Of a stretch of DNA of 64,000 nt, positions 1,295 through 56,616 are shown piece by piece; position 1 is the stretch's first letter; each line of letters begins with the position of its first letter. Origin of the DNA: Candidatus Poribacteria bacterium (GTDB lineage Bacteria; Poribacteria; WGA-4E; WGA-3G); the NCBI GenBank assembly GCA_963663765.2, contig CAXXUA010000005.1, positions 1,344,001 through 1,408,000 of the forward strand, in the 5' to 3' direction. The translations under genes were made by a program, and so were the position numbers. The notes under the pieces were generated by a model. It was not told where the DNA came from. It saw nothing but the letters and a program-made list of their open reading frames with translations, and did not search any database.

Positions 1295-1451
1295 CAGGAC
1301 TTACGCACCCAACGGTAGGCGCGCTTTGTAGGCGGGGAATGCCAAAAGGCATTCATACCGTTGATTTGGCGCTGGAAACCGAAAAAATGCTGAAAATTAC
1401 ACCATTTTCGTCAAAATTCTTCATCAAATCATGAAAACTGCGTAAGTCCTG
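1295..1451 (+). mobile_element. MITE family A (TIR CAGGACTTACGCA) carrying a 35-nt insert
   Basis: TIR caggacttacgca...tgcgtaagtcctg, 5-bp duplication AAGAT on both sides; 35 nt longer than the empty copy at 13592-13713. Confidence 0.85.
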
Positions 1452-1708
1452 AAGATAAAAGTCTCTAAAATATCAAGATAATGTTCAATTATTTAATGTT
1501 CCAAATGTTTATTGTTCAACGTTACATAATGAAGTTAATTGAAGAAAAAAATGGTGCTGAATGTTTTTCATGCCGAGTTTTTTCATGCTTAATTTTCGGT
1601 ATTGATACACTGCTACTTTATTAAAAATAACCTTGCTTAGGATTAATATATTACGCGTATATTTCATAGTTATTTTGATAAATATATGTCAGATAATTCC
1701 GTTTTTGC

Positions 1709-1738
1709 TTGACAGCAGTTTTAAATCTTTGTTACAAT
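1709..1738 (+). promoter_or_regulatory. Sigma70-type promoter for nrdJ
   Basis: TTGACA-18 nt-TACAAT with TGn extension, followed by AGGAGG RBS and ATG at 1760. Confidence 0.65.
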
Positions 1739-1759
1739 ACACATCAGGAGGTATATTAT

Positions 1760-4700
1760 ATGACTGCCAACAATATCAAAGAAATTGATGAAGCAGTGAA
1801 ACATCCGATAGATGGCGATGGGACGGGACTCTCGTTCGGTCGATACTTTACAAAATCAGGTGTTCATCCTTATGACGAACTTGAATGGGAACGTCGTGAT
1901 TCTGCCATCTATAACGAAAAAGGCGATGTTATTTTCAAGCAGGATCAGGTTGAAGTGCCTGTGTCTTGGACGCAACTCGCAACGGATATTGCTGCCTCAA
2001 AATATTTCAGAAAGGCTGGTGTTCCGGATGTAGAATCAGAAACAAGTGCACGTGAATTAGTTACCCGCGTTGCCCGGACTCTACGTAGGGCTGGTGAAGA
2101 AATCGGCGGTTATTTTGCTACATCAGAAGATGCCGATACATTTGAAATGGAATTGACACATATTCTTATCACGCAACGGGGCGCATTCAACTCACCCGTT
2201 TGGTTCAACTGTGGTTTATGGCATGAGTACGGAATTAAAGGTGGTGGCGGAAATTACTATTGGGACAGAGACGCACAAAAAGTTAGTATTACTGAAAACG
2301 CATATCAATATCCACAAAACTCTGCATGTTTTATACAGAGTGTGGAAGATTCTTTAGACTCAATGCTTGAGCTGCAAAAAGCAGAAGTCAGACTTTTTAA
2401 ATACGGTAGTGGAACTGGATCGAACTTCAGTAAAGTAAGGGCAAAAGGCGAACATCTCTCCAGTGGAGGTGAGAGTTCAGGTGTGCTTTCGTTCCTTGAA
2501 GGATTTGACCGTTGGGCTGGTAGTATAAAGTCTGGTGGCACGACACGTCGCGCTGCCAAGATGGTCATTTTGGACATGGACCATCCAGAAATTGTTGATT
2601 ACATTGACTGGAAAATGAAGGAAGAGGAAAAGGCGAAAGCACTCATCGCATCGGGTTATCCCGCAGACTTTAACGGTGAGGCTTACGGTACAGTGAGTGG
2701 GCAAAACAGCAACAATTCTGTAAGGATTCCAGATATTTTTATGGATGCTTTCCTTCATGCCAAACAGTGGCAAACAACTTATCGTACTAGTGGTGAAGTT
2801 GCAGCGGAATATGAAGCGAAAATGCTGATGGATAAAATCGCTGAAGCTGCGTGGGCATGTGCTGACCCCGGTGTTCAATTTGATGATACAATACAAAAAT
2901 GGCATACATGTAAAAATACTGGCAGAATTAACGCAAGTAATCCTTGTAGTGAATATCTCTTCTTAGATGATTCCGCATGCAACCTTGCAAGTATCAATCT
3001 TGTCAAATTCCTTAAAGATGATGACACATTTGATATTGACGGTTTCAGGGCAACAGTACGTGTCTTTATCACTGCAATGGAAATCATTGTGAGCCTGTCT
3101 TCGTACCCGACTCCAAGAATCGCGAGACGTTCTCACGAATATCGTCCACTCGGACTTGGATATGCAAACTTAGGCGCAATGTTGATGCGGTTAGGTATTC
3201 CCTATGATAGCGCAGAAGCATGCAGTTACGCTGGAGCTATTACGGCTATCCTGAGTGGACATGGTTACGCCACAAGCGCGGAGATCGCCAAGAGTATCGG
3301 AACGTTTGCGGGTTATCCCAAAAACCGTGAATCCATGTTGGATGTTATCAATATGCATCGTGATGTGGCTTACAAACTTGATGCGACAACATGCCCTTCC
3401 GACCTTTTAGATGCAGCACAAAAAGATTGGGATCTCTGTCAACAAAAGGGAGAGACTTGGGGTTATCGTAATTCGCAAATAAGCGTTATTGCACCGACAG
3501 GAACCATTGCACTTCTGATGGATTGTGATACAACAGGAATTGAGCCTGAATTTGCGTTAGTCAAGTTCAAGAAGTTAGCGGGTGGTGGTTATATCAAGAT
3601 TGTGAACCAAAGTGTTCGTGATGCATTGAAAAAACTCGGTTATATACCCCAACACATTGAGACGATTGTAACGCATATCGTTGGAACAGGTACACTTGAA
3701 GGGACTCCATATATCAACCCGGAATCCTTGAAATACAAGGGTTTTACTGAAGAGGATATTGCGAAGGTTGAAGAGATGTTACCGAGTTCATTTGACCTTA
3801 ACCTTGCTTTTGCTCCCGGTTTCCTTGGTGAAGAATGTCTTGAAAGATTAGGTATCACAGCGGAAAAAGCTGCGGACCCAGATTTCAATCTACTAACATA
3901 TCTTGGTTTCAATCCGAGTGAAATTGCAGGTGCCGAAGAGATTATTTGCGGCACAGGTACGATCGAAGGTGCACCACATCTGTCATCTAAACATTATCCT
4001 ATATTTGATTGCGCTGTTCAATCGGGTAAGCACGGTTCTCGTTTTATTCACCACATGGGGCCCCTGAGATTGATGGCGGCAGTACAGCCTTTTATTTCTG
4101 GTGCTATATCAAAGACAGTCAACGTCCCGCGTGAAGCGACTGTAGATGATATTAAGGAACTTTATGTGGAAGCATGGCGACTTGGTGTGAAATGCCTAGC
4201 TATTTATCGTGATGGCAGCAAAGGCAGCCAGCCGCTTTCAACCAGTAGCCAACAGGATACGCAAGAGAATGCCAGTGGCCTTCCGATCCGTAGACGATTG
4301 TTAGATACGCGGAAAGGGATTATACACAAATTCAGTGTCGGTGGTCATGAAGGTTACATGCAAGTCGGCTTCTTTGAAGATGGCACGCCAGGTGAAGTTT
4401 TCCTGACTATGAGCAAACAGGGATCTACCACCGCAGGACTTATGGACTCAATCGCCATCCTCATCTCACTTGCCTTGCAATATGGTGTGCCGTTAGAATC
4501 GCTGGTCAATAAGTTTAGTCATGTTCGGTTTGAACCATCAGGATTTACACAAGATCCTGATATCCCCATGGCAAAATCCATTGTTGACTATGTTTTCCGT
4601 TGGCTTGGTAAAGAGTTTCTTCCGAAAGATGTACAAGCTAACACAGCAAAGATTCTTGAGTTGGATGACCAGATGGCAATACCTCAAGAAATTCCGCCAA

Positions 4701-4867
4701 CTGAGCATGGTAGAAATGGGGATACAGACCCGTGGGCAGACCGCGAGAAGTTGGTGACTCTCCGATATGGAGATGCACCGCCTTGCCATGAGTGTGGTTC
4801 AATTATGATCCGAAGTGGTATCTGTTATCGATGCACAAACTGCGGTGCAACAAGCGGATGTTCATAA
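1760..4867 (+). CDS. nrdJ: Vitamin B12-dependent (class II) ribonucleotide reductase
   Basis: FNSPVWFN, SACFI, GGTTRRAAKM, ASNPCSEY, APTGTI, ISGAISKTVN motifs; C-terminal TSCPD-like domain and CxxC..CxxC..GCS tail; start reassigned to ATG after AGGAGG. Confidence 0.95.
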   Translation: MTANNIKEIDEAVKHPIDGDGTGLSFGRYFTKSGVHPYDELEWERRDSAIYNEKGDVIFKQDQVEVPVSWTQLATDIAASKYFRKAGVPDVESETSARELVTRVARTLRRAGEEIGGYFATSEDADTFEMELTHILITQRGAFNSPVWFNCGLWHEYGIKGGGGNYYWDRDAQKVSITENAYQYPQNSACFIQSVEDSLDSMLELQKAEVRLFKYGSGTGSNFSKVRAKGEHLSSGGESSGVLSFLEGFDRWAGSIKSGGTTRRAAKMVILDMDHPEIVDYIDWKMKEEEKAKALIASGYPADFNGEAYGTVSGQNSNNSVRIPDIFMDAFLHAKQWQTTYRTSGEVAAEYEAKMLMDKIAEAAWACADPGVQFDDTIQKWHTCKNTGRINASNPCSEYLFLDDSACNLASINLVKFLKDDDTFDIDGFRATVRVFITAMEIIVSLSSYPTPRIARRSHEYRPLGLGYANLGAMLMRLGIPYDSAEACSYAGAITAILSGHGYATSAEIAKSIGTFAGYPKNRESMLDVINMHRDVAYKLDATTCPSDLLDAAQKDWDLCQQKGETWGYRNSQISVIAPTGTIALLMDCDTTGIEPEFALVKFKKLAGGGYIKIVNQSVRDALKKLGYIPQHIETIVTHIVGTGTLEGTPYINPESLKYKGFTEEDIAKVEEMLPSSFDLNLAFAPGFLGEECLERLGITAEKAADPDFNLLTYLGFNPSEIAGAEEIICGTGTIEGAPHLSSKHYPIFDCAVQSGKHGSRFIHHMGPLRLMAAVQPFISGAISKTVNVPREATVDDIKELYVEAWRLGVKCLAIYRDGSKGSQPLSTSSQQDTQENASGLPIRRRLLDTRKGIIHKFSVGGHEGYMQVGFFEDGTPGEVFLTMSKQGSTTAGLMDSIAILISLALQYGVPLESLVNKFSHVRFEPSGFTQDPDIPMAKSIVDYVFRWLGKEFLPKDVQANTAKILELDDQMAIPQEIPPTEHGRNGDTDPWADREKLVTLRYGDAPPCHECGSIMIRSGICYRCTNCGATSGCS

Positions 4868-4888
4868 ACCTCCAAGTATAATGTGAAT

Positions 4889-4945
4889 AGGACTTATACG
4901 AACTCCGTGAAGGTGATATACCTATTGGGTTTGTGTAAGTCCTAT
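4889..4945. terminator. Hairpin after nrdJ resembling degenerate MITE-A ends
   Basis: taggactta...taagtccta inverted repeat just downstream of the nrdJ stop. Confidence 0.4.
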
Positions 4946-5039
4946 TCTTGTGATTTCTGTTAAAACATGGTATACTATATTACCTCACAAAAATTCAATG
5001 AGGAAAGATTAACCTTATTATCCAACTTAGGAGAAGAAT

Positions 5040-5852
5040 ATGAAAAAGTTATGTTGTATTGTATCAATTATTGTGTTAACAATTGCAAGTTATAGTTTCG
5101 CGCAAGACATTGCAGTCTTATATGATACTGCGATGGAAAACGGTGCGGGTTTAAGCATTCCAGGAGGAGTTGCTGGTGCCAGTGGATTAGCAGACCAAAT
5201 TGTGAGCAAACTTCAAGATGAAAACCTGACTGCGGAAATCGTTGATGGTGAGGGGGTAGCAGCATATATGAATGCAAACCCAAAAGGTATCATAGTCCTT
5301 ACCCAGGGAAATGTCCCAGATACAATATTCCAAAATAAGGGAGCAGACGATCTGATTCATTCTTGGTTAACGGATGGTGGCATCGCTGCAATGATTGGGG
5401 ATTGGCCTTTCTACTATTATTGGAATTATGGTACAAATAGCAGGGTTACCATTATGGGTGGAGGTCAGCAAAGTGTGTTTGGCGTTACCGTAACAAATTC
5501 TGATACTGCCAATGCATCCCCTACCGATTTAGGTAAGCAATATATGCCATCAATCAAACAGTGGACATCAAACAGACCTGTGGATATCAGTGTTTTAGAA
5601 GATAACGATTTTAAGTTTGAAAGTTATGCTGACGATGGTTCAAATGCGGATCCGATTGCCTACAGAACAGATGATATGGATGGATGGTTCATCAACTTCC
5701 ATACATCTTCCAGCATTACCATTCCGCCAAATGACCAAATTGCGACAGAATTAGCTGAATTGATGGTTAATCGTTTTGTTACAGATGCGCAATCTGTAGA
5801 CCCGACAGGTAAGGTCAGTGTCGTTTGGGGTGAGTTAAAATCTTTGCGATAG
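5040..5852 (+). CDS. Secreted hypothetical protein with C-terminal VDPTGKVSVVWGELK motif
   Basis: Signal peptide ending SFA-Q, AGGAG RBS, C-terminal motif shared with five other proteins in the window. Confidence 0.8.
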   Translation: MKKLCCIVSIIVLTIASYSFAQDIAVLYDTAMENGAGLSIPGGVAGASGLADQIVSKLQDENLTAEIVDGEGVAAYMNANPKGIIVLTQGNVPDTIFQNKGADDLIHSWLTDGGIAAMIGDWPFYYYWNYGTNSRVTIMGGGQQSVFGVTVTNSDTANASPTDLGKQYMPSIKQWTSNRPVDISVLEDNDFKFESYADDGSNADPIAYRTDDMDGWFINFHTSSSITIPPNDQIATELAELMVNRFVTDAQSVDPTGKVSVVWGELKSLR

Positions 5853-5928
5853 GTAAGCACATAAACCGTAGTTGCAATTTAAGGATTATGACTACGGTAT
5901 AAACCATCAGAATTGTCCAGTATTTTTC

Positions 5929-5957
5929 TTGACATTGCCTGACAAAGGTATTATAAT
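5929..5957 (+). promoter_or_regulatory. Consensus sigma70 promoter of the ilv leader
   Basis: TTGACA-17 nt-TATAAT. Confidence 0.85.
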
Positions 5958-6040
5958 TAAAGGGAACGAGAGTAGATTTTAGAAACACGCACAATAGTTA
6001 ACAAAAAGGTGTGTATAAAAAAATATATTAGATTACATAA

Positions 6041-6378
6041 AATGCGTTGAAAGGGAGGAGTAGGTCCTCTGGACTTGTAAGAGAGGGAGACTCATTGGCT
6101 GCAAGGTCTTCTCAAGTTCCTACGACTGAAGGTCGCCCCGGAGCTGCTAACCTGAACGATACATAGACTTTAGTAAGGTTAGACGGTTTGATGTCCGTTA
6201 TTGCATCCCAAAGAGTGCCTTTCCTCGTTTAACGGTGTTTTTATGCACCTATTGTTTGAAAACAAGGATTGGAATTGGAGTGGTACCACGGTAAGGTCGG
6301 TTTCGGTGATTTCAACCGAAACATGCTATAAAAAGCCGCATCCTTCTCGTCTCCAAAGATGGAACGAGAAGGTTTTTT
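6041..6378 (+). ncRNA. T-box riboswitch (transcriptional), probable Val specifier GUC
   Basis: Stem I with AGTA, AGAGAG, GGCTG and GAAG-GTC-G loop (GTC 6132-6134); stem II taacct-GAA...AGTA-aggtta; CCGTTA box; T-box AATTGGAGTGGTACCACGG (6273-6291) pairing with CGTCTCC; overlapping terminator. Confidence 0.9.
6342..6378 (+). terminator. Intrinsic terminator of the T-box leader
   Basis: ccttctcgt...acgagaagg stem followed by TTTTTT; overlaps the 3' antiterminator strand. Confidence 0.85.
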
Positions 6379-6438
6379 ACTTTCAACAAACTTTGGCACG
6401 AGAGAATGTGCCTACTACCGTCTATAAGGAAACTTGGC

Positions 6439-8115
6439 ATGGAACTTTCAGGAGCACAAACCCTGGTTGACTGTCTCAAGCGTGAAGGTGTCGAATATAT
6501 CTTCGGTGTGAACGGCGGCGCGGCAATGCCGATTTTTGATGCCCTATACGGTGATACAGATTTAGAATTGATTCCGATGCGTCATGAGCAAGGAGCATCT
6601 CATGCCGCTGATGGATACGCCCGCGCCACCGGAAAGGTTGGTGTCGCACTCGCAACCTCTGGACCTGGTGCAACCAATCTCGTTACTGGAATCGCAACCG
6701 CTTATATGGATTCAATTCCAATGGTAGCGATTACTGGACAGGTGATGACACAGTTCATTGGCAGCGATGCCTTCCAAGAATGTGATGTCATCGGTGTTAC
6801 ACGTCCAATCTGTAAACACAGTTATCTAATCAAACAGTCTGAAGAGGTTGCAGATGTTATCGCAGAAGCATTCCATATTGCAAGTACTGGCAAACAGGGA
6901 CCTGTTATTATTGATATTGCTAAGGATGCACAGGTACATAAATCTCTGTTTCAGTATCCAGAAACAGTTGATATTCGCAGTTACAAACCGCAGGTAAATG
7001 GTGATCCAACACAAATAGCAAAAGCAGCAGCAATGATTAAGGAAGCGAAATGTCCAATCCTATATGCAGGTGGTGGAGTCGTTCTTGCGAATGCGAGTGA
7101 AGAACTGCGGGAGTTAACCCTCAAAACACAAATACCGATTACTGTTACATTAATGGGACTCGGTGCGTTTCCTGAAACACATCCGTTAGCGATGGAGATG
7201 CCAGGTATGCACGGTTCTTGTTGTGCTAATTATGCGTTCACGGGTGCTGATCTTGTTGTCGCTATCGGTGCAAGATTTGATGATAGGGTTACCGGTGATC
7301 TTGACAAATTCGCACCTAACGCAAAGAAAATCCATATTGATATTGATGCTTCATGTATTGGAAAAAATGTTCCTGTTGATGTTCCAATTGTTGGCGATGC
7401 AAAGAACGTTCTCACAGAACTAAACAAGTTGGTTGACACCGCAGATATTGACCCGTGGCGTGATCAAATTCAGGAATGGAAACAGAAATATCCATTTGAA
7501 TGGACACAAAAAGGGAACAAAGTGATGCCGCAATATGTCATGGAGCAGATTTATGAACACTATAGTGATGCAATTGTTGTTGCGGATGTTGGTCAGCATC
7601 AGATGTGGGCGGCACAATACTTCAAGTTCACCGAACCGCGTCAATGGCTTAATTCGGGTGGTCTTGGGACAATGGGGTTCAGTCTTCCAGCTGCAATTGG
7701 TGCACAACTCGGATGTCCTGATAAAACTGTTGTCAATATCAACGGTGATGGTTCTTATATCATGACTATTCAAGAGTTAGTGCCAGCGATCACAATGAAA
7801 TTACCACTTAAGATCTTCATTATCAACAATATGTATTTAGGCATGGTGCGGCAATGGCAGGAGTTGTTCTTTGACAAGCGATATTCCGCTGTGGATTACC
7901 ACGACAATCCTGATTTCGCGTTGCTTGCACAAGCATTTGGTGCGACCGGATTGCGTGTTGAGCATCCTGAAGATGTTGAACCTGCATTATTGAAAGCAAA
8001 AGGCATAGACGATGGTCCGGTTGTAATTGATTTTATTGTTGCAGAAGAGGAAAACGTGTTCCCAATGGTCCCCGCTGGTAAAGGTCTTGGTGATGTCATC
8101 CGCGGGTTGTCATAA
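6439..8115 (+). CDS. ilvB: Acetolactate synthase large subunit (biosynthetic)
   Basis: RHEQGASHAADGYAR, TSGPGATN, GARFDDRVTG, SGGLGTMG, GDGS...NN TPP motif, MVRQWQ; start ATG 6439 after AAGGA. Confidence 0.96.
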   Translation: MELSGAQTLVDCLKREGVEYIFGVNGGAAMPIFDALYGDTDLELIPMRHEQGASHAADGYARATGKVGVALATSGPGATNLVTGIATAYMDSIPMVAITGQVMTQFIGSDAFQECDVIGVTRPICKHSYLIKQSEEVADVIAEAFHIASTGKQGPVIIDIAKDAQVHKSLFQYPETVDIRSYKPQVNGDPTQIAKAAAMIKEAKCPILYAGGGVVLANASEELRELTLKTQIPITVTLMGLGAFPETHPLAMEMPGMHGSCCANYAFTGADLVVAIGARFDDRVTGDLDKFAPNAKKIHIDIDASCIGKNVPVDVPIVGDAKNVLTELNKLVDTADIDPWRDQIQEWKQKYPFEWTQKGNKVMPQYVMEQIYEHYSDAIVVADVGQHQMWAAQYFKFTEPRQWLNSGGLGTMGFSLPAAIGAQLGCPDKTVVNINGDGSYIMTIQELVPAITMKLPLKIFIINNMYLGMVRQWQELFFDKRYSAVDYHDNPDFALLAQAFGATGLRVEHPEDVEPALLKAKGIDDGPVVIDFIVAEEENVFPMVPAGKGLGDVIRGLS

Positions 8116-8133
8116 ACTTTACACCAAAACAAT

Positions 8134-8634
8134 ATGAATAAAAAAGAAGAAAGACACATTTTTTCGGTTATGGTCGAAAACCGATTTGGCGTTCTCGCAC
8201 GCGTAGCGGGACTTTTTAGCGGACGCGGTTTTAATATTGACAGTCTCAACGTCGCTGAAACTCATGACAAGAGTGTCTCGCAAATTACGCTTGTTACACA
8301 TGGAGATGCTCAAATAATTGATCAAATTTATCAGCATCTTAACAGACTCATTGACGTCATTGAGGTCACAGACCTTACTGCGGGAACACATGTTGAACGA
8401 GAGTTACTCCTATTGAAGATTCGCACTGAAGATCCACGGAAACGCGCTGAGATTCTACAAGTTGGAGATGTCTACCGCGCACGGGTGATTGACACGAAAC
8501 CTGCTTCTCTTGTGCTTGAAATCACCGGTGATGAAGGAAAATTGGAGGCAGCAATTGCAATTTTCAAACCTTATGGGATCCTTGAGTTAGCACGCACCGG
8601 TAAAATAGCGATGGGACGCGGTAATACAAAGTAG
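8134..8634 (+). CDS. ilvN: Acetolactate synthase small regulatory subunit
   Basis: VENRFGVLARVAGLFSGRGFNIDSL ACT domain, ELARTG. Confidence 0.95.
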   Translation: MNKKEERHIFSVMVENRFGVLARVAGLFSGRGFNIDSLNVAETHDKSVSQITLVTHGDAQIIDQIYQHLNRLIDVIEVTDLTAGTHVERELLLLKIRTEDPRKRAEILQVGDVYRARVIDTKPASLVLEITGDEGKLEAAIAIFKPYGILELARTGKIAMGRGNTK

Positions 8635-8681
8635 CACGCATTTGCAGCACATGATGAGATTTATTAGAAAGGACAGATTAT

Positions 8682-9674
8682 ATGGCAACAATTTATTACG
8701 ATAGCGATGCCAATTTTGATTTACTAAAAGAACGTACCGTCGCCATCATTGGTTATGGCGCGCAAGGCAGAGCACAAGCACTCAATTTACAAGATAGCGG
8801 CGCAAATGTGGTCGTTGGATTATATGAAGGCAGCAGCTCAATTGCACGCGCAGAAGCAGAAGGTATTAGCGTCAAGACGGTTGAAGAAGCATCAGCGATG
8901 GCAGATGTTGTGCAGATTCTTATCCCAGACGAAAAGCATTCGGCTGTATACCTTGAACAGATCGCACCGAACATGCAAGAAGGCAACATGCTGATGGTGT
9001 CGCACGGGTTCAGTGTTCATTTCGGTCAGATTGTCCCTGCTGACGATATTGATGTCACTATGATAGCACCGAAGGGACCTGGTTCTCTCGTCCGCGAAGT
9101 ATTTGAAGGCGGTGGTGGCGTGCCGTGCCTTATCGCAATCCATCAAGATACGACTGGTGCTGCACGAGATATTGCACTTGCTTATGCAAGAGGTATCGGC
9201 GGTACACGTGCGGGGGTTATGGAAACCACATTCCGAGAAGAAACAGAAACCGACCTTTTCGGTGAACAAGCTGTCCTGTGTGGTGGCACTGCTGCGCTAA
9301 TTAAAGCAGCCTTTGATACACTCGTTGAAGCGGGATATCAACCTGAAATGGCTTATTTTGAATGCCTACACGAATTGAAACTCATCGTTGACCTACTCTA
9401 TACTGGTGGATTGAGTAAAATGCGGAACGATATTAGTAACACTGCAGAATATGGCGACTTGACACGTGGTCCGCAACTCATTGACGATAGTGTTCGTGAT
9501 AGAATGCGACAGATTTTAAAAGATGTCCAAGGTGGTATCTTTGCCCGAGAATGGGTACTGGAAAATCAAGCGAATCAACCTGTGCTGCGCGCACTACGCA
9601 GACAGGAAGCTGCATTGGAAATTGAAGAGGTTGGCAAGAATCTGCGTAGTATGATGAGTTGGCTTGATGATTAG
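8682..9674 (+). CDS. ilvC: Ketol-acid reductoisomerase
   Basis: [38 protein letters not shown]. Confidence 0.97.
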
Positions 9675-9697
9675 GTGGTTTTTCAGTTTCCTTAGTT

Positions 9698-9970
9698 AAC
9701 GTGAGTTTAGTAAATAAGAATTTTGGAATCGGCAGAATACGCGTATGGTATTCTGCACTGGTTAGGAAACCGAACCATAAACGTCAATTTAAGGATTTTG
9801 ACCTCTTGTGGGAGGGGTTTTCAACCCGATTTTATGTTCATTTGCTCTCAAATCGGGGTTGAAAACCCCTCTCACAAGAGAAATGCCAGCACTTTTTCTT
9901 AAATTGACGCATAAGGTTCGGTTTCCTAACAGCACCTACCGCAAGATTTCCCATTTATCAAACTCACGTT
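9698..9970. mobile_element. Nested repeat element: outer TIR AACGTGAGTTT containing micro-hairpin Z, two REP pairs and a GCGTCAATTTAAG-TIR MITE
   Basis: aacgtgagttt...aaactcacgtt; inner acgtcaatttaag(9781)...cttaaattgacgc(9910); gtgggaggggttttcaaccc REP pair; ggcagaatacgcgtatggtattctgc at 9731-9756. Confidence 0.7.
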
Positions 9971-10269: not shown

Positions 10270-10567
10270 TAATGAAGATTAATTTATTAATTCGGTAATA
10301 AATATTCCTACACGGTAGGCGGGGAATGCCTAAATGGCATTCATACCGTTGATTTCTTGATTTGGTGCTTTGTAAGCGCGCCACCCGATTGTAGTCGTGC
10401 TTTGTAAGCGCGCCACCCGATTGTAGTCGTGCTTTGTAAGCGCGCCACCCGATTGTAGTCGTGCTTTGTAAGCGCGCTATTGGAACTTGATGTGCCAGCG
10501 CGCTTGCAAAGCACGACTACCAGGGTGGGTTAGATAAAATTACCTAATTTATTTATTAATCTTCATA
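10270..10567. mobile_element. TA-targeting MITE (TIR TGAAGATTAA) inserted in a REP, carrying a REP array and a 44-nt hairpin insert
   Basis: Interrupts cgtccc-TA-cgggactaaa with TA at both ends; sister copy at 31842-33224. Confidence 0.75.
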
Positions 10568-10691
10568 CGGGACTAAAGAGTATGTCAATATAAGTGAAAT
10601 CACAATAATACGTTCAGCTTATGTGAAGAAATATATAGCAATTAGTTATTTAGCACAACACGTTAAAATATGGATATTTCAAATGTTATAT

Positions 10692-10914: not shown

Positions 10915-10934
10915 TTATATAAATCCTAGCTATA

Positions 10935-12329: not shown

Positions 12330-12341
12330 TGTTTTCCTCCA

Positions 12342-13481: not shown

Positions 13482-13740
13482 GACGTCAATTTAAGAAAAA
13501 GTGTTGGTGTTTCTCTTGTGGGAGGGGTTTTCAACCCCGATTTGAGAGGAAAAGCGCATATAATCGGGGTTGAAAACCCCTCCCACAAGAGCAGGACTTA
13601 CGCACCTAACGGTAGGCGCGCTTTGAAAGCGCGCTGGAAACCAAAAAAATGCTGAAAATTACACCATTTTCGTCATAATTCTTCATCAAATCATGAAAAC
13701 TGCGTAAGTCCTGAAGATGTCAAAATCCTTAAATTGACGC
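13482..13740. mobile_element. GCGTCAATTTAAG-TIR MITE with REP pair, containing an empty MITE-A (13592-13713)
   Basis: acgtcaatttaag...cttaaattgacgc; inner caggacttacgca...tgcgtaagtcctg flanked by AAGAG/AAGAT. Confidence 0.8.
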
Positions 13741-15860: not shown

Positions 15861-16253
15861 GGGTGTGTAAAGTTTTTGCACAAACTGCACATTCTCCATT
15901 GTAGAGCGAAATCAAGAAATCAACGGTATGAATGCCATTTAGGCATTCCCCGGGTCTCTGTGCCCCGCCGCAACTGATTAAATGAGAGATTGCGGGCACA
16001 GAGACCCATAGGTGTCAATATAAGGAAATATTGTTAATATCAACCATACTCTTCAGTCCCGTAGGGACGATATGTTTATAGAAAACAAGTACCCTTCCCA
16101 GTTCTTTAGTCCCGTAGGGACGATATGTTTATTCTTCTATGTCGTTCCTACGGAACTCAAGAGAGGGTGATTACACCTATCTATAAACATTGCGTCCCTA
16201 CGGGACTAAAGAGAACAAAAGTTTGTACCTCTGTGCAAAAACTTTACACACCC
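15861..16253 (-). mobile_element. MITE with IS256-like ends (TIR GGGTGTGTAAAGTTTTTGCACA) carrying REPs and a 44-nt hairpin insert
   Basis: TIRs at both ends, 9-bp duplication AAGGGAGGA; homologous to 33370-34316 and 35513-36024; IS256 link inferred from end sequence and duplication length. Confidence 0.8.
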
Positions 16254-17913: not shown

Positions 17914-18034
17914 CAGGACTTACGCAAAGACGGTAGGCGTGCTTTGTAAGCGCGCTGGAAACCCATAAAAATACTGATAATTACATCATTTTCAGCTTAT
18001 TTCTTGATTAAATCAAGAAAACTGCGTAGTCCTG
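17914..18034 (+). mobile_element. MITE family A (empty form)
   Basis: caggacttacgca...tgcgtagtcctg, 5-bp duplication TTAAG. Confidence 0.8.
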
Positions 18035-25289: not shown

Positions 25290-25461
25290 GACAAATGCCA
25301 TACGGGGAATGCCTAAATGGCATTCATACCGTTGATTTGGCGCATTTGGCGTTGATTTGGTAGGGACGATATGTTTATAGAAAAACGTCATAGTACATCC
25401 TCTTTAGTCCCGCCAAATGCCATACGGGGAATGCCTAAATGGCATTCATACCGTTGATTTG
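25290..25461 (+). mobile_element. Two REP copies each interrupted by nested micro-elements Y and X
   Basis: agtccc^gtagggac interrupted at 25290-25359 and 25412-25461; uninterrupted REP is frequent elsewhere, e.g. about 16055 and 41895. Confidence 0.8.
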
Positions 25462-31710: not shown

Positions 31711-33313
31711 CAGGATTATTCAGTTTTGAGAGTTTTCTGTTCTTGAGATTTACTGAAAGTTAATACACGTGTTCGGTTTCCTAACCGAACACTACGCATC
31801 AGTTTTAGATTGTTGAACCATGAACATCGCTCTTTAGTCCCTAATGAAGATTAAAAAATACTTTGGGTAATTCTACTAATCCGTCTACGGTAGGCGGGGA
31901 ATGCCTAAATGGCATTCATACCGTTGATTTGGTGGTTTGTCCGCGCACCCCCCAACTGCAGGCGTGCTTTGTCCGCGCCCCCCCTCCTGTCCCCCACCTG
32001 CAGGCGTGCTTTATCGCGCCCCCCCCCCCACCTGCCCCCCACCTGCAGGCGTGCTTTATCGCGCGCCCCCCACCTGCAGGCGTGCTTTATCCGCGCGCCC
32101 CCCTCCTGCCCCCCAACCGCAGGCGTGCTTTGTTAGCGCACCTGCCACCTGCCCCCCAACCGCAGGCGTGCTTTGTCCGCGCGCGCCATCCAACTGCCTC
32201 CCACCTGCAGGGGTGCTTTGTCCGCGCCCCCCCAACTGCCTCCCACCTGCAGGCGTGCTTTGTAAGCGCACCCTCGATGGTAGGCGTGCTTTGTCCGCGC
32301 GCGCCATCCAACTGCCTCCCACCTGCAGGCGTGCTTTGTCCGCGCGCGCCATCCAACTGCCTCCCACCTGCAGGCGTGCTTTGTCCGCGTGCGCCCCCCT
32401 CCTGCCTCCCACCTGCAGGCGTGCTTTGTCCGCGCGCGCCCCCCCTCCTGCCTCCCACCTGCAGGCGTGCTTTGTCCGCGCGCCCCCCTCCTGCCTCCCA
32501 CCTGCAGGCGTGCTTTGTCCGCGCGCCCCCCACCTGCAGGCGTGCTTTGTCCGCGCGTCGCCCTCCTGCCCCCCACCTGCAGGCGTGCTTTGTAAGCGCG
32601 GCGCCGCCCTCCTGCCCCCCACCTGCAGGCGTGCTTTGTCAGCGCGCGCCGCCCAACTGCCCCCCACCTGCAGGCGTGCTTTGTCCGCGCGTCGCCCTCC
32701 TGCCCCCTAACTGCAGGCGTGCTTTGTCAGCGCGCGCCGCCCTCCTGCCTCCCACCTGCAAGGCATGCTTTGTCTGCGCGCGCCCCCTCCTGCCTCCCAC
32801 CTGCAGGCGTGCTTTGTCAGCGCGCCCCCCACCTACAGGCGTGCTTTGTCCGCGCGCCGCCCTCCTGCCCCCTAACTGCAGGCGTGCTTTGTCAGCGCGC
32901 GCCGCCCTCCTGCCTCCCACCTGCAGGCGTGCTTTGTAAGCGCGCCACCTAACTGCCTCCTAACCGCAGGCGTGCTTTGTCCGCGCGCCACCTAACTGCC
33001 TCCCACCTGCAGGCGTGCTTTGTAAGCGCGCCTGCCAACTGCCCCCTAACCGCAGGCGTGCTTTGTAAGCGCACCCCCGATGGTAGTCGTGCTTTGTAAG
33101 CGCACCCCCGATGGTAGGCGTGCTTTGTAAGCGCGCTGGTACATCAAGTCCCAAGAGCGCGCTTACAAAGCACGCCTACAATCTGAAAAATATTTATTAC
33201 CCGATTAATAAATTAATCTTCATACAGGACTAAAGAACTAGACAAGATGGTATCCCATAAAATTAACGACATAGCAAAATAATACCAAAAATATTGAAAA
33301 CTAAAAAACACCC
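31711..33313. mobile_element. CAGGG-ended MITE expanded by nested insertions
   Basis: caggattattcagtttt...aaaactaaaaaacaccc with 9-bp duplication AAATTATAT; contains MITE 31842-33224. Confidence 0.75.
31932..33180 (+). repeat. C-rich degenerate tandem array of about 30 REP-derived units (core G(T/C)AGGCGTGCTTTGT)
   Basis: Core recurs every 28-50 nt; closes with an inverted REP gcgcgcttacaaagcacgcctac. Confidence 0.9.
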
Positions 33314-33369: not shown

Positions 33370-34316
33370 GGGTGTGTAAAGTTTTTGCACAGAGGTACTA
33401 ACTTTTTCTCTTTAGTTCCGTAGGGACGCAATGTTTATAGAAAGACGTTTTTACATCCCTCTCTTTAGTTCCGTAGGAACGACATAGAAGGATAAACATA
33501 TCGTCCCTACCAAATCAACGCCAAATGCGCCAAATCAACGGTATGAATGCCATTAAGGCATTCCCCGTATGGCATTTGGCGGGACTAAAAAGACGTGGGG
33601 ATATGTATTTCTATAAACATATCGTCCCTACGGGACTGAAGAATATGGTTAATATTAACAATATTTCTTTATATTGACACCTAATGACGTTTGACAATCA
33701 AAATCGGCAATTGAATTCGTAGGGGTTGGGTTCCCCAACCCGTTTGGTTTTTGAGTTTGCGTAGATCATGTGTGGAAACCACGCCCCTACGCATACACAA
33801 CTTGAACGTCAAAACTCATTAGGACTCTGTGTCCGCAATCTCTCATTTAATCAATTGCGGCGGGACACAGAGACCCGGGGAATGCCTCAATGGCATTCAT
33901 ACCGTTGATTTGGGGGAATGCCTAAATGGCATTCATACCGTTGATTTGGGGGAATGCCTAAATGGCATTCATACCGTTGATTTGGGGGAATGCCTAAATG
34001 GCATTCATACCGTTGATTTGGGGGAATGCCTCAATGGCATTCATACCGTTGATTTGGGGGAATGCCTAAATGGCATTCATACCGTTGATTTGGGGGAATG
34101 CCAAAAGGCATTCATACCGTTGATTTGGGGGAATGCCAAAAGGCATTCATACCGTTGATTTGGGGGAATGCCTCAATGGCATTCATACCGTTGATTTGGG
34201 GGAATGCCTCAATGGCATTCATACCCGGGGAATGCCAAAAGGCATTCATACCGTTGATTTCTTGATTTCGTCCTACAATGGAGAGTGGGATGTTTGTGCA
34301 AAAACTTTACACACCC
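33370..34316 (+). mobile_element. IS256-like-ended MITE with nested inserts and 36-nt tandem array
   Basis: TIR gggtgtgtaaagtttttgcaca, 8-bp duplication ATTGTGGT; nested Y+X (33511-33580), TA-flanked 140-bp MITE (33682-33821), array 33877-34269. Confidence 0.85.
33877..34269 (+). repeat. Head-to-tail array of 11 hairpin units (35-36 nt), no spacers
   Basis: GGGGAATGCC(TAAAT/TCAAT/AAAA)GGCATTCATACCGTTGATTTG x9, one unit truncated at CATACCC, last unit with a doubled TTGATTTC tail. Confidence 0.95.
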
Positions 34317-35512: not shown

Positions 35513-36024
35513 GGGTGTGTAAAGTTTTTGCACAGAGGTACTAACTTTTGTTCTCTTTAGTCCCGTAGGGACGCAATGTTTATAGAAAGACGTTATCACA
35601 TCCCTCTCTTTAGTTCCGTAGGAACGACATATAAGGATAAACATATCGTCCCTACGGGACTGAAGAATATGGTTAATAGCAACAATATTTCTTTATATTG
35701 ACACCTAATGAAGTTTGACAATCAAAATCGGTAGTTGAATTCGTAGGGGTTAGGTTCCCCAACCCCTTTGGTTTTTGAGTTTGCGTAGATCATGTGTGGA
35801 AACCACGCCCCTACGAATACACAACTTGAACGTCAAAACTCATTAGGACTCTGTGTCCGCAATCTCTCATTTAATCAGTTGCGGCGGGGCACAGAGACCC
35901 GGGGAATGCCAAAAGGCATTCATACCCGGGGAATGCCAAAAGGCATTCATACCGTTGATTTCTTGATTTCTTGATTTCGCCCTACAATGGAGAGTGGGAT
36001 GTTTGTGCAAGAACTTTACACACC
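35513..36024 (+). mobile_element. IS256-like-ended MITE, sister of 33370-34316
   Basis: Same TIRs and internal order; shares the 140-bp insert (35706-35845); two hairpin units at 35901-35978. Confidence 0.85.
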
Positions 36025-39872: not shown

Positions 39873-40029
39873 CAGGACTTACGCAAAAACGGTAGGCGGT
39901 GAATGCCTAAATGGCATTCATACCGTTGATTTGGTGCTTTGTAAGCGCGCTGGAAACCGAAAAAATGCTGAAAATTACACCATTTTTGTCATAATTCTTC
40001 ATCAAATCATGAAAACTGCGTAAGTCCTG
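39873..40029 (+). mobile_element. MITE family A with a 36-nt insert at a second site
   Basis: TIRs, 5-bp duplication ATAAT; insert 39898-39933 at gtaggc^gtgc. Confidence 0.85.
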
Positions 40030-52631: not shown

Positions 52632-52658
52632 AGGCGCGCTTACATAGCGCGCCTTTTT
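52632..52658 (+). terminator. REP-like hairpin terminator between convergent genes
   Basis: AGGCGCGCT-TACAT-AGCGCGCCT followed by TTTT. Confidence 0.6.
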
Positions 52659-55423
52659 CTTTTTACTGCCAACAACCGTACCATAGCACTATCGGTATGT
52701 TGTGATTGTTCTGCATCTGCCATCTTTTCATTGAATACACGTGTCGGCACAGTGTTCACTGGCGGATGGGTTGCGGGATTAGCCGTTGTAACATCGTTTT
52801 TCGTCTGTGTAAGACGTGTCAACGTTTCAGGTACTACGGCTTCAGTGTGTCTGCGGAGTTGCGCGCGAAGTTCCGACAAGTACCCACCCATAATGCTAAA
52901 CCGTCGAAGAATCATCTCCAATACAAACAGGAGTATAGCAGCGATTAACAACCCACCTGCAAGTGAAACACTCTTTTCAATGGGAACACCCGCAGGAGCA
53001 ACTATCTGAGCTGTTGTCGGCGCATAAACACCGTCTGTTCTCTCAGAAAGTTGTTTTAGCAAACCACGGTTAACATCAAAATTGGCATATTCGGCAGGAT
53101 AGGAAAGCGACAGTGTTTCCGTGCGTTTTCCCGCATCACCCTCACGTTTCGCTGTGACAATATAGGAACCGTTATCGTTCATAAGAAATGTTCCCAAATA
53201 ACGTGTAACACTCTCCTGCTGCATATTGACAGATTGGCTTGTGCCATTCGGTGCTGCAACCTGCACTGTAAACTCTGCAGAGGACGACAGTTGCGTGTCT
53301 ATTATGACTTCTGCTTTCCCATTTTGAGGTGATACAATTAGGTCAAAATCTACATCTGCTCCTTCTGCTGGTAAAGTCCAATTGATAACTTGTCCCCAAA
53401 ACCTGCTAAAGTTATCCCATGAAATCCAGTCTTTACTCCAAGCAGGTTTGACATCCGATGTCCACGCAATAGATTTCCCCAATCCGTAGTGCCAACCCGT
53501 GAGAATAGGTTCGTCCTTATGAGAATTGATGAAAACCTGTGCAGCGGTTTTTTCTGCTGTTGCTACGTATCCGTAAAGTATCGGTAATGTGTTGATACCT
53601 TCTAAAATCGGTGTTTCTTGGTTGACAATGTTCGGTTGGAAGGTTTCTTGCACAATGTAGTTTTGCGTTTCCTTGACAGCATCCATCAATACTTTGGGCA
53701 AATCTTGGATATTTTGCACGTGTTTGAACCTTCCATTTCCCGCTTTCGCAACTGCCTCCAAGACATTTTTTGCAGCATCCCCGATAGCAATTGTTGTGAT
53801 ACCAATACGTGCATCTGTAATCGCTTCCGCATTCTCAATCAGATCAGATAGGTTTCCTTCAGATTTTCCATCCGACAAAAGGATAATGTGTTTCCGTTTC
53901 GCATCAGCTGCTATCAGCATTTCCCCTGCTTTCTGGATTCCGTGCCCCATTGCAGTCGTGCCACCTGCCGGTACGAGTTTCCCAACTGTTCGAATCAGCG
54001 TGTTGTGGTCTGTTGTGAGGGGTGACACTTCACGCAGGTTCACGTCAAAACCGATTACTGCCGCTTGATCTTCTTCCTCCAGATTTCTAATGCCTGCGCG
54101 TATCGCCTGCACAGCAAGTTCAATCTTTTGCTGTGCACCAACAAAGTTTGCCATGCTTCCCGATGTGTCAATGACAAAGACAAGTGCAACAGTCTCCTTC
54201 CGTTCACGCGGTGTCATCTCTACCGGAAGCATATCTTCTAAAGCGGTATCTGTGTAACCTCCTGGACCAAAAGCGTGCTCACCCCCAATTGCTACTAACC
54301 CGTGTCCAAGATCACGCACATAGTTCTCAATAATGTCCATCTGTCTTAATGAAAGTGAATCTGCTGCAACATTACTCAAAATCAGCACATCATTTTGTTG
54401 AAGTGTTACCAGTTCTGTAGGTATTTCTTCCGGGAGAATTACATTTACCATAAACCCGTTACCTTCAAGAACCGATTTCAGATTATCAGCATAGTCAAGA
54501 TCGCTTTCCACATACAAGATATGCGATTTGTCCTGAACCTGCACAACACCAAAAACCTGATTGTTTTCAAGTAGTTCGTCAATTACATTCAACTTCAGTT
54601 GAAATGAATGCGGACGAACATCTGAAACCTGTTGTGTCGGTAGTGTCAATACATTTTTACCTTTTTCCAGAGCGAATTCCAGTTCGGAGATTGGAACACC
54701 GTTGTGATAGAATGTGGCGGAAACAGTTGGGATGCTGCCATCCGTTTCAACGATAGCCTGTATTGGAAAACGTTGTCCTTTTCTAACATGATCTGGTAGC
54801 TTCAGTTCCTGCAACCGAATTTCATCTTTCACTGTGTCTAAAGGCACTGTCATAATTTCCACATCGCTCGCAGAAAACAGCGGGAGAAAGTCTGTAATAG
54901 CACTATTGCCGATGTTGTGAATTCCATCTGTGAAAAGCACAATACGTCTATGGTAATTATCAGGCATCAGTTCTACAGAACGCTTAAGACCTACGACAAT
55001 ATCTGTTGCATCCCGTTCAGTTGCTGTCTCCTCAATCACCGATGTTAGCGGTGGATGTTCATGTGCCGGTCCCATCTCAAGTAAGACTGATGGTTGCCCC
55101 GCGAAACTGATAACACCAAATTGGTCAGTCGGTTTCAATTGGGCTATGGCTGCGTTAATCTGTTTCATCGCTTCATCTCGTTGTGAGGGGGCAATGCTCT
55201 CCGATACATCAAGCAGAAATGACACTGCAAGTCGTTGATTGCGTTCGGTGCGTTGCAGATTTGCTAAAGCAAGAATCACACACAAGAGCGCAGCACATCG
55301 TAGAAACAAAGTAGTGCGTTTACGCCACTTTGAAGCAATAACTTTAGTGCGTATCTGTATTAGGACTAAAAAAGGTATGGCAGCAAATAGAAATAAAAAA
55401 AGGGGGGATTGGAAATCAAACAT
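52640..55423 (-). CDS. Membrane protein with two VWA domains and a glutamine-amidotransferase-like domain
   Basis: BatA-like N-terminus, LLDVSES and IDTSGSM MIDAS motifs, GGEHAFGPGGY..T.LE..LPV, YGLGKSIAWTSD, C-terminal TM. Confidence 0.85.
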   Translation of the reverse strand: MFDFQSPLFLFLFAAIPFLVLIQIRTKVIASKWRKRTTLFLRCAALLCVILALANLQRTERNQRLAVSFLLDVSESIAPSQRDEAMKQINAAIAQLKPTDQFGVISFAGQPSVLLEMGPAHEHPPLTSVIEETATERDATDIVVGLKRSVELMPDNYHRRIVLFTDGIHNIGNSAITDFLPLFSASDVEIMTVPLDTVKDEIRLQELKLPDHVRKGQRFPIQAIVETDGSIPTVSATFYHNGVPISELEFALEKGKNVLTLPTQQVSDVRPHSFQLKLNVIDELLENNQVFGVVQVQDKSHILYVESDLDYADNLKSVLEGNGFMVNVILPEEIPTELVTLQQNDVLILSNVAADSLSLRQMDIIENYVRDLGHGLVAIGGEHAFGPGGYTDTALEDMLPVEMTPRERKETVALVFVIDTSGSMANFVGAQQKIELAVQAIRAGIRNLEEEDQAAVIGFDVNLREVSPLTTDHNTLIRTVGKLVPAGGTTAMGHGIQKAGEMLIAADAKRKHIILLSDGKSEGNLSDLIENAEAITDARIGITTIAIGDAAKNVLEAVAKAGNGRFKHVQNIQDLPKVLMDAVKETQNYIVQETFQPNIVNQETPILEGINTLPILYGYVATAEKTAAQVFINSHKDEPILTGWHYGLGKSIAWTSDVKPAWSKDWISWDNFSRFWGQVINWTLPAEGADVDFDLIVSPQNGKAEVIIDTQLSSSAEFTVQVAAPNGTSQSVNMQQESVTRYLGTFLMNDNGSYIVTAKREGDAGKRTETLSLSYPAEYANFDVNRGLLKQLSERTDGVYAPTTAQIVAPAGVPIEKSVSLAGGLLIAAILLFVLEMILRRFSIMGGYLSELRAQLRRHTEAVVPETLTRLTQTKNDVTTANPATHPPVNTVPTRVFNEKMADAEQSQHTDSAMVRLLAVKRKRRAM

Positions 55424-55482
55424 CAGTTCGACCCTCTGATTCTCTTATATTTTGTAGTAGTGACCTCACAGTCGCACCATAG

Positions 55483-56616
55483 GCATCAATTTAAGGATTT
55501 TGACCTCTTGTGGGAGGGGTTTTCAACCCCGATTATAGTAACAATACCTTCGCCAATAATAGACATTCTTCCAGATTGTGCGTGTAGTTGTAGCACATTC
55601 TTCCAGATTGTGCGTGTAGTTGTAGCACATTCTTCCAGATTGTGCGTGTAGTTGTAGCACATTCTTCCAGATTGTGCGTGTAGTTGTAGCACATTCTTCC
55701 AGATTGTGCATATAAATTATTCTGTCAGATTCTATCGTCAAATTAGACGCTATGATAAATAAAAATACTTCAACGAAAACCTGAAGTTATTTTTATTTAT
55801 GTAATCCTAACAATCTCACAGAGCAATGGTAGATCAACACATTATACTCATTCAACTGAAGCACTCAAAAATGGCGAAGGTATTGTAGTAAAACATATAA
55901 TTATTTTGACATTTTGTAGCACAAACTTTTAGTTTGTGCAGATGCGGACACAAACTAAAAGTTTGTGCTACTACACCTTTGGTAGGTTCGATTTCTAACC
56001 AATGCAGAATACCACACGGGGAATGCTATATAGCATTCATACCCGGTGAATGCCTAAATGGCATTCATACCGTTGATTTCTTGATTTCTTGATTACTTGA
56101 TTTGGCGTATTCTGCCGAACATATTGTCCTATTATTTCTAAAGTCTACTATATATAACTCAAGTTGCTACCTATAAGGTTTAGACGAATAAACACCTTTT
56201 TTATAGAGTATAAAACACTTTTCGGTAGTATTTGTAGCACAAACTTTTAGTTTGTGCATCTTTATGACGCAAACTAAAAGTTTGCGCTACAAAATATAGG
56301 CTATTTATCAACACTTTTTTGATAATAGATGGTGTTTCTAGGTCTAATTATTGTAGGTAGCAACTTGGGTTATATATAGGATTCAATATGCTAATTCGGG
56401 GTTGAAAACCCCTCCCACAAGAGAAACGCCAACACTTTTTTCTTAAGGACTTACGCAGTTTTCATGTTCCAATCAAGAATTAAGACGAAAACGATGTAAT
56501 TTTCAGCATTTTTTAGGTTTCCAGCGCCAAATCAACGGTATGAATGCCTTTTGGCATTCCCCGCCTACAAAGCACGCCTACCGTTGGGTGCGTAAGTCCT
56601 GTTCTTAAATTTACGC
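55483..56616. mobile_element. GCGTCAATTTAAG-family MITE expanded by multiple nested repeats
   Basis: gcatcaatttaag...cttaaatttacgc; REP pair at about 55508/56397 separated by a 32-nt array, REPINs, Z+X, MITE 56157-56370 (TATATA flanks); MITE-A 56445-56601 (TTCTT duplication). Confidence 0.7.
55563..55710 (+). repeat. 32-nt REP-like tandem repeat, about 4.6 copies
   Basis: acattcttccagattgtgcgtgtagttgtagc repeated exactly; contains GTAG-CACA...TGTGC hairpin. Confidence 0.9.

Follow-up and report, generated by a model that had tools for sequence, protein, structure and literature searches.

A candidate non-autonomous micro-element of 35-36 nt that lies within other hairpin repeats of Candidatus Poribacteria

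Introduction

The genomes of Candidatus Poribacteria carry a small polar repeat, which we term X, that lies within other hairpin repeats. We analyzed X starting from a 64-kb stretch of DNA (assembly GCA_963663765.2, contig CAXXUA010000005.1, positions 1,344,001 to 1,408,000; hereafter the window, in whose own numbering window positions are given). Our preferred reading, to which we assign a probability of roughly 55%, is that X is a non-autonomous micro-element whose abundance stems both from recurrent insertion and from passive co-amplification with its host repeats.

X would belong to a superfamily (X, Y, V and a long form of X) that is confined to one genus and united by one common tail. 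Each unit would enter precisely 3' of a C, usually with an A at position -4, in the loop or at the foot of a hairpin repeat, most often a GTAG-type repetitive extragenic palindrome (REP) or another X, with nothing duplicated or lost. Since the left junction would again read C then G, the same site could be hit repeatedly, which would produce tandem arrays. Copy number may have risen by two routes: (a) a limited but recurrent series of new insertions, most visibly of second units into resident X copies, and (b) passive co-amplification or gene conversion together with the host repeats. Insertion would probably occur on single-stranded or extruded hairpin DNA through a trans-acting enzyme that nicks and joins, for which HUH-type chemistry may be the best analogue.

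Results

Anatomy and copy number of X

X is a polar unit of 35-36 nt in which a bulged hairpin of 26/27 nt is followed by one to six copies of an 8-nt tail. Its left arm reads GG(G/T)G and GAATGC(C), its loop is 4-7 nt long, and its right arm reads (G)GCATTC and ATACC, after which come GTTGATTT and one further base. The stem has 7 bp and is lengthened by GG/CC over a 3-nt bulge. In single-stranded DNA (ssDNA) folding, the 7-bp stem forms from either strand (approximately -7 kcal/mol, z -2.7 to -3.75); in a two-hairpin copy, three extra G-C pairs prolong the first stem over the ATA bulge.

An earlier note on this DNA had described X by a sequence pattern at 12 loci in the window. That pattern has 24 exact matches, all of which fall exactly at those loci, compared to 0 in 100 dinucleotide-preserving shuffles. 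In the whole metagenome-assembled genome (MAG) of Candidatus Poribacteria from which the window comes (G000; 6.35 Mb in 15 contigs, ~41% G+C, 97.8% complete) we found 504 X hairpins, and 480 of these were parsed into 404 composite elements. Four composite forms are given below, where H denotes a hairpin, T a G-type tail unit, t a C-type tail unit and c a joining C.

HT: 208 copies in G000
HTt: 61 copies in G000
HcHTt: 35 copies in G000
HTtt: 12 copies in G000

The first tail unit always starts with G and all later ones with C, such that a second G-type unit occurs in none of the 404 composites. Long tandem arrays of X are found twice in G000, one of them at window positions 33877-34269.

Unit boundaries and target rule

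Boundaries were defined by in-silico excision, in which one unit was removed and the joined 22-mer was looked up in G000. An exact empty site was recovered for 326 of the 504 hairpins, in two classes: excision of 35/36 nt (hairpin plus tail) and excision of 27/28 nt (C plus hairpin, within another X). Filled and empty sites differ by exactly one unit, the tail does not occur in the empty sites, and no target duplication was seen, as the earlier note had stated. Its description of X as a discrete and polar unit is likewise borne out by the exact boundaries and by insertion 3' of a C. It had also reported a lack of terminal inverted repeats; this is correct for the unit as a whole, although its hairpin arms do form short inverted repeats of their own.

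The base to the left of the unit is C in 389 of 404 composites of G000, and position -4 is A in 360 of 404, while positions -2 and -3 are merely S-rich. In 303 of 352 cases a G follows the last tail unit. Across 96 loci in other Poribacteria MAGs, 100 of 101 composites have C on the left, in more than 15 contexts, whereas G stands on the right in just 50 (C in 26, A in 17, T in 8). Because the left C is near-invariant and the right base varies, the rule is best worded as 'after a C', with a weaker upstream context. Of the C^G junction proposed in the earlier note, the left half therefore stands, and the right half describes G000 better than it describes other genomes.

Other hairpins provide the sites of X, in their loop or at their foot, and the 78 distinct upstream 8-mers are all variants of about a dozen host hairpins. 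According to a crude caller of open reading frames (ORFs), 34 of 404 composites lie within ORFs, and the listed ORFs that overlap X are 5' over-extensions or run through repeat arrays; the claim that X stays outside genes is thus essentially right, if not strictly demonstrated. The orientation of X is independent of that of neighboring genes (68 versus 65 and 61 versus 48), which counts against a role at the transcript level.

Host repeats and sibling hairpins

The hosts of X comprise GTAG-type REP hairpins, a 118-nt miniature inverted-repeat transposable element (MITE) that we call MITE-A, and sibling hairpins that bear the same tail as X. GTAG-type REPs, in which GTAGG and one or two further bases precede the hairpin, are the commonest. 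Two of the host REP families adjoin genes for REP-associated tyrosine transposases (RAYTs), in agreement with the earlier proposal that X parasitizes REPs. REP1, the first of these, borders a RAYT that has HUH and Y motifs (G000:C4:621598-622074) as well as RAYT orthologues in eight other species. The other, REP-A, is the main host of X; one of its arrays adjoins a second, fragmentary RAYT gene (RAYT-2) at the end of contig 10 (G000:C10:25015-25277), which is truncated by the contig end and carries one TAA, and a hairpin related to REP-A flanks a RAYT in G008. MITE-A has terminal inverted repeats, contains REP-A and offers two sites for X, A1 and A2. Of its 228 copies in G000, 191 were parsed, and 105 of these are empty at both sites. 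The hosts A1, A2, REP1 and REP2 all carry GTAG; X, Y and V lack it on both strands.

The X tail also stands behind different stems, namely those of Y (123 copies), V (14 copies) and the long X form (41 copies). The loops of these elements are related and the differences between their stems are compensatory. A third hairpin holds Y in its loop, 3' of a C, and CAACCCC precedes V. The repeats are nested in the order third hairpin, Y, X, X, and X loops in turn carry insertions of a MITE and of an IS4-like insertion sequence (IS). The elements in the window, together with the empty host copies that the earlier note had pointed out, are as follows.

1334..1368, + strand: X with one hairpin (4-nt loop AAAA) and one tail unit, in MITE-A site A2, after ...TTTGTAGGC
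10321..10364, + strand: X with one hairpin and two tail units, after ...CGGTAGGC; a 3.5-copy REP-A array comes next (10365-10477)
15908..15951, - strand: X with one hairpin and two tail units, at the 3' foot of a long hairpin, H3, after ...CACAGAGACCC
25291..25359, + strand: Y (7-nt loop, same tail, tail at 25349-25359) with X at 25304-25339 in its loop; this Y itself lies within the loop of the third hairpin (GTCCC/GGGAC)
25426..25461, + strand: X preceded by a left Y half-hairpin; Y lacks its right half and tail here, and the outer host directly follows the X tail
31896..31931, + strand: X after ...CGGTAGGC, heading a 1.1-kb run of REP-A hairpins (31948-33134)
33511..33580, - strand: Y with X (33531-33566) in its loop; Y tail at 33511-33521
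33877..34269, + strand: X tandem array of 11 hairpins at the 3' foot of hairpin H3; 10 full units (35/36 nt) with three loop variants intermixed, the last unit carrying a further nested hairpin and two tail units
35901..35978, + strand: two hairpins joined by C, with three tail units, at the 3' foot of a second H3 copy
39898..39933, + strand: X (GGTG start, loop TAAAT) in MITE-A site A1, after ...CGGTAGGC
56018..56104, + strand: two different hairpins joined by C, with four tail units, in the loop of hairpin GCAGAATACC.../...GTATTCTGC
56528..56562, - strand: X (loop AAAA) in MITE-A site A2
13592..13710, + strand: MITE-A, both sites unfilled
17914..18031, + strand: MITE-A, both sites unfilled
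9731..9759, - strand: empty copy of the hairpin that hosts X at 56018

Inspection of the last three confirmed their empty state: neither MITE-A copy is filled at either site, and 9731-9759 is the empty form of the 56018 host on the reverse strand. Just upstream of the first MITE-A copy (13515-13590) lies an empty copy of the hairpin that elsewhere hosts V. The Y half that is lost at 25426-25461 is most simply read as a deletion between two identical 9-nt tails.

Recurrent insertion of X

The 45 two-hairpin composites represent 32 combinations of host, first loop and second loop, spread over at least eight hosts. The first loop is mostly the host's resident variant, and we therefore conclude that second units entered resident X copies many times. 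Minority loop variants are present at most host sites. Other species harbor X in hosts that are wholly missing from G000; the target GGCGAGGC^ is filled at 10 loci in other MAGs and at 0 in G000, and two hairpins with 140 and 255 empty copies in G000 are filled with X elsewhere.

Second insertions have a fixed geometry, always reading resident hairpin, C, new hairpin, G-type tail, C-type tail. The presence of an extra hairpin is accompanied by an extra C-type tail unit (42 of 45 versus 79 of 287; Fisher p ~1e-17), and HTt is most simply a two-hairpin form that has lost one direct-repeat hairpin.

Contigs of the Logan collection that cover window positions 1-20000 contain two kinds of joint, one that leaves out precisely X (15908 to 15952) and one that leaves out X together with 13 further bases (1320 to 1369). 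Their short sides lie within repeat families, and paralogous empty copies could give the same joints, such that they are evidence neither for nor against polymorphism of X within populations.

Passive spread with host repeats

The following observations weigh against recurrent insertion as the source of X copies, as do several results of the enzyme search described below. Each host site has a dominant loop variant.

A1: TAAAT, 74 of 112
Y loop: TTAAT, 42 of 62
TGCAGGC: CATACGC, 30 of 39
A2: AAAA, 33 of 37
REP1: AATA, 15 of 15

Within MITE-A, a TAAAT-type loop is nearly universal in the first hairpin at A1, as is an AAAA-type loop at A2. Because of this dominance, many X copies need no insertion of their own. 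The comparison of orthologous loci suggested by the earlier note gave a similar picture. At 39898, 30 relatives among the matches listed lack the entire MITE-A plus X (~160 nt). The flanking genes are adjacent in those relatives for which both gene matches were listed, being contiguous in the closest one (G045, 88% identical) and separated in most others by ~50-70 nt to ~300 nt, which indicates that MITE-A and X arrived as one block; at least nine other MITE-A plus X copies in G000 are 90-97% identical to this one. G045 likewise lacks the entire repeat cluster at 15908. Thus, at both window loci compared, it is the whole host repeat, and not X alone, that is present or absent. The net effect of a second insertion is also problematic, being the swap of one G for C + hairpin + tail + C, a product that a simple C^G insertion does not yield. 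We considered simple cut-and-join schemes for this geometry and were unable to obtain it from any of them.

The phylogeny of MITE-A bears on both routes. On a FastTree tree of 183 copies (118-nt alignment, without support values, on which gain, loss and short-patch conversion are indistinguishable), the A2-filled state is clustered (17 changes versus 28.1 for shuffled labels, range 24-30), whereas the A1-filled state is as scattered as shuffled labels (50 changes versus 48.8, range 40-56).

Together, these data bear on an alternative in which X is immobile at present, having arisen in about a dozen old and rare events and spread passively ever since through MITE transposition, REP amplification, array expansion and gene conversion. 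Host-specific loops, the MITE-A plus X and 15908 blocks that are missing as wholes, the clustered A2 state and the fact that X never occurs in unique DNA, as conversion would require, are all consistent with it. We nonetheless consider this alternative unlikely, since it does not accommodate the 32 combinations of resident and second hairpins, the minority variants, the filled hosts of other species that G000 lacks or has empty, the scattered A1 state, or the conservation of the X core described below. The 32 combinations, the lineage-specific hosts and the scattered A1 state support the earlier claim that at least some X insertions are independent. A large fraction of the copies did not arise independently.

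Distribution across genomes

In a scan of one genome per prokaryote species, the 92 X matches listed were all in MAGs of Candidatus Poribacteria, which are sponge symbionts. Of 24 other species in the genus, 23 carry X together with its tail (0-129 copies, compared to 310 in G000), and of 16 genomes from other families of the order, none does. The tail pattern itself is found 35-648 times per genome in ten genomes of the genus, G000 included, and 15-46 times per genome in other genera and families, which we took as background. We do not claim the superfamily for the X-poor genomes G003, G020 and G009, in which tail counts are 53, 58 and 24, respectively, against this background range. Among the Poribacteria papers retrieved, none concerned DNA repeats, judging by title.

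Contigs from four public runs, belonging to three studies, contained X as well. An artefact of assembly or adapters, which the earlier note had raised, is hardly credible: X occupies the same kinds of host repeat in dozens of independent Poribacteria MAGs from various projects, single-contig chromosomes among them.

Dominant loop variants differ among species. The X core, by contrast, is letter-perfect in species whose genes are just 72-88% identical, which requires either recent activity or selection. Selection is the basis of a further alternative, in which X is a selected module, composed of a putative protein-binding site in the tail and a structural hairpin, and its mosaics arise by REP-directed recombination, comparable to the conserved non-REP motifs of bacterial interspersed mosaic elements in enterobacteria; X would then not be a selfish element. 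Such a module would explain why the core is identical across species, why the tail is conserved over unrelated stems that change by compensatory pairs, and why X is essentially intergenic and always part of REP mosaics; the regional clustering of X orientation in G000 (runs test z -3.86) also fits. Proliferation is what the tandem arrays and nested copies look like, however, and copy number varies between 0 and 310 across the species of a single genus, neither position nor orientation relative to genes is fixed, and no Rfam model at gathering score matches the 64-kb window. We regard a selected module as quite unlikely.

Orientation was clustered over hundreds of kilobases for both X and REP-A on contigs C3-C6 and C13 of G000 (runs test z -3.86 and -2.93). 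This clustering is modest for X, common to it and its host repeat, and not explained by gene direction. In G000, neither GC skew nor third-position skew yielded a replichore signal that could be used. In a separate closed genome, G024:C1, positions 2.39-3.01 Mb hold 22 X copies on the - strand versus 2 on the + strand among the matches listed, without a clean two-replichore pattern.

Search for a mobilizing enzyme

We found no mobilizing enzyme for X, and the visible Y1 HUH genes are poor candidates. The HUH inventory of G000 consists of four IS200/IS605 tnpA copies, one RAYT and one RAYT fragment, and the ends and flanks of the IS200/IS605 copies and RAYTs are unrelated to X. The earlier note had proposed that X is mobilized in trans by an HUH transposase. 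In its most specific form, a sub-case of our preferred explanation, this would be a Y1 HUH enzyme (the RAYT of the host REPs or an IS200/IS605 TnpA) that cuts ssDNA at C^G. There are reasons to entertain it: the G000 RAYT is flanked by its own GTAGG-hairpin REPs, the RAYT fragment lies beside REP-A arrays and four IS200/IS605 tnpA copies are at hand; X targets lie right at GTAGGC^G of RAYT-associated REPs; and TnpAREP is described as cutting and rejoining REPs in single-stranded form at a dinucleotide on the 5' or 3' side of the hairpin (PMC8266576).

The distribution of Y1 HUH genes argues otherwise. In a comparison spanning 31 genomes of the genus, Y1_Tnp (PF01797) was not found in three X-rich genomes, G001 (62 X, 97% complete), G010 (76 X, 94% complete) and G024 (71 X, closed, one contig), and was present in X-poor genomes, namely G003 (0 X, 3 matches), G009 (3 X, 21 matches) and G020 (2 X), whose RAYT shares 88% identity with the G000 RAYT. 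Nor does X behave as a RAYT's own repeat. It lacks the GTAG tag; it abuts none of the RAYT genes at 12 loci in 11 genomes; and it occurs at just one of these loci, more than 1 kb from the RAYT match. At a 13th locus, that of the RAYT-2 fragment of G000, one X lies inside the adjoining REP-A array. We therefore rejected RAYT as the mobilizer of X, there being no association in either RAYT loci or Y1_Tnp distribution, and we consider mobilization by any Y1 HUH enzyme to be unlikely.

Among the 21 Y1_Tnp matches of G009:C1, at least nine are split at the same position, and the second half has one in-frame TAG. These could be a pseudogenized IS200-like family or a programmed interruption.

The earlier note had named a reverse transcriptase as another possible mobilizer. 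The polarity of the unit and the repetition of its 8-nt tail, for which templating is conceivable, are all that would suggest spread through an RNA intermediate. A search of the 97.8%-complete G000 for RVT_1 returned no match, whereas three control genomes were positive, and X orientation is unrelated to the direction of transcription; we accordingly hold this route to be very improbable. IS110 was also not found in G000, with controls positive. Y2_Tnp (PF04986) and Rep_1 (PF01446) had no match in G000, but they had no match in any control genome either.

A gene bounded by the X hairpin and tail, which the earlier note had envisaged as a RAYT, IS200-like, IS110 or reverse transcriptase gene, was not found in G000. 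Orphan X halves were traced to X copies interrupted by a MITE, other hairpins or the IS4-like IS. Tagged hairpins flank 36 genes on both sides; 10 of these were annotated, and eight are housekeeping or otherwise ordinary genes, while two have no Pfam match or transposase features. In the closed genome G017, one X subfamily is represented by 26 copies on the + strand intermixed with 27 on the - strand, without apparent replication-strand polarity.

Discussion

By its polarity, its lack of target duplication and its insertion after a short motif beside a hairpin, X appears to work like elements moved by HUH enzymes, and the tests of membership that we ran came out negative. The closest known kinds are the small dispersed repeats (SDRs) of cyanobacteria and the tagged REPs.

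The SDRs of Nostocaceae (SDR4-6) are 21-27 nt long and are nested in one another and in larger repeats, and no transposase or other enzyme is known for them. SDR5 inserts between the third and fourth base of the HIP1 octamer (PMC4390886), and SDR-like repeats were reported as not found outside Nostocaceae (PMC5861425). X and SDR4-6 (Elhai et al. 2008, Genome Res 18:1484) are alike in being very small and in inserting precisely into palindromes without duplication. X differs in that it occurs in Poribacteria, is 35-36 nt long and has a constant, repeatable 3' tail common to several hairpin families; the likeness is one of description. The earlier claim that X is an unusually small mobile unit therefore needs qualification: recurrent insertion supports it, but much of the abundance of X is passive, and the SDRs of Nostocaceae are a precedent in kind (PMC4390886, PMC5861425). 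X still looks to be among the smallest known mobile DNA units.

Tagged REPs of the GTAG and CGTC super-families are described (PMC3733652, PMC8266576) as hairpins of 20-50 nt with a conserved unpaired tag at one end, which many families share while differing in their stem; some REP families are regularly inserted in other small palindromes (PMC3733652), and bulged stems are important to TnpAREP for one group (PMC8266576). X shares with them a constant tag on a variable hairpin and, with the group-2 REPs, a bulged stem, and, like the CGTC REPs, it has no dedicated transposase. Its tag, however, is 8-9 nt long, unrelated to GTAG or CGTC, and located 3' of the hairpin on the X strand, and X is not the own repeat of a RAYT, GTAG REPs being its targets instead.

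IS200/IS605 elements resemble X in being strand-polar, in duplicating nothing, in inserting 3' of a short sequence and in having a sub-terminal hairpin near the cleaved end (PMC8266576). X has one hairpin and not two, its left cut would fall at the hairpin foot, it has no cognate TnpA with similar ends, its copies of one subfamily in G017 show no apparent lagging-strand polarity, and it abounds in Y1-free genomes. IS91 is described in PMC13181058 as lacking target duplication, as specific for a tetranucleotide target and as having an imperfect sub-terminal palindrome next to the cleavage site. X is similar in its lack of duplication, its tetranucleotide specificity and its sub-terminal palindrome, and its tail units start with GTTG or CTTG, resembling the IS91 targets CTTG and GTTC; the target of X, unlike these, ends in C with an A at -4. 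IS1397 and ISKpn1 target REPs, judging from titles cited in PMC3116915 (Tobes and Pareja 2006 among them), and X thus shares with them the use of REP hairpins as sites, but these IS are full-length and protein-coding whereas X has 35 nt. A MITE of a DDE transposon would have target-site duplications and terminal inverted repeats, both of which X lacks at the level of the unit.

A bolder and more tentative possibility is that the tail-tagged hairpins (X, Y, V) constitute a new class of trans-mobilized micro-transposon, placed 3' of a C in single-stranded hairpin loops by an enzyme that is not a recognizable Y1 HUH, reverse transcriptase or IS110 protein; a housekeeping or unnamed nick-and-join protein of the sponge symbionts might be the candidate. 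If so, the 8-nt tail would be a recognition tag, and the replacement of G by C + hairpin + tail + C in second insertions would directly record the enzyme's chemistry.

How the smallest bacterial repeats, such as REPs and SDRs, spread is a long-standing question. The footprints of X are unusually clean, with exact boundaries, a near-invariant left C and a shared tag on interchangeable hairpins, and dozens of independent second insertions share a reproducible, non-trivial junction. Closed, X-rich genomes without obvious candidate enzymes make the mechanism testable with oligonucleotides and a few proteins. SDR-like elements exist outside cyanobacteria, and in practice the nesting of these repeats fragments short-read assemblies of Poribacteria and generates spurious ORFs.

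Other repeats in the window and in G000

A REPtron lies at G000:C4:620100-623570, where a 159-aa RAYT is found amid arrays of its own GTAGG-hairpin REPs (14-mers present 270 times). At G000:C15:316385-318169, a 1.7-kb IS encoding a 516-aa transposase (DUF4277 plus DDE_Tnp_1), with inverted ends and a 6-nt duplication, occupies the loop of an X that is itself within the loop of a Y. A MITE with AT-rich inverted ends (GAAGATTAAT...) is repeatedly found within X loops (G000:C2:89667-89839, C4:1092169-1092722 and others), and ends of this MITE lie beside X in the window at 10250-10310 and 31850-31890.

Three tracts of the window are dominated by tandem repeats. The 1.1-kb REP-A array at 31948-33134 contains ~26 hairpins with a period of 43-45 nt and gives rise to long spurious ORFs (31863-32939, 31937-32710 and 32056-32667). 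A 1.5-kb array of a 36/37-nt GTAGG-hairpin REP (REP2) at 60380-61928 has higher-order periods of 173-281 nt. Finally, positions 42452-43750 and 24644-25118 are large tandem repeats of composite blocks built from the same small hairpins, one with a period of 326-379 nt in 2-2.6 copies and the other with a period of 157 nt in 3 copies; the copies are 98% identical.

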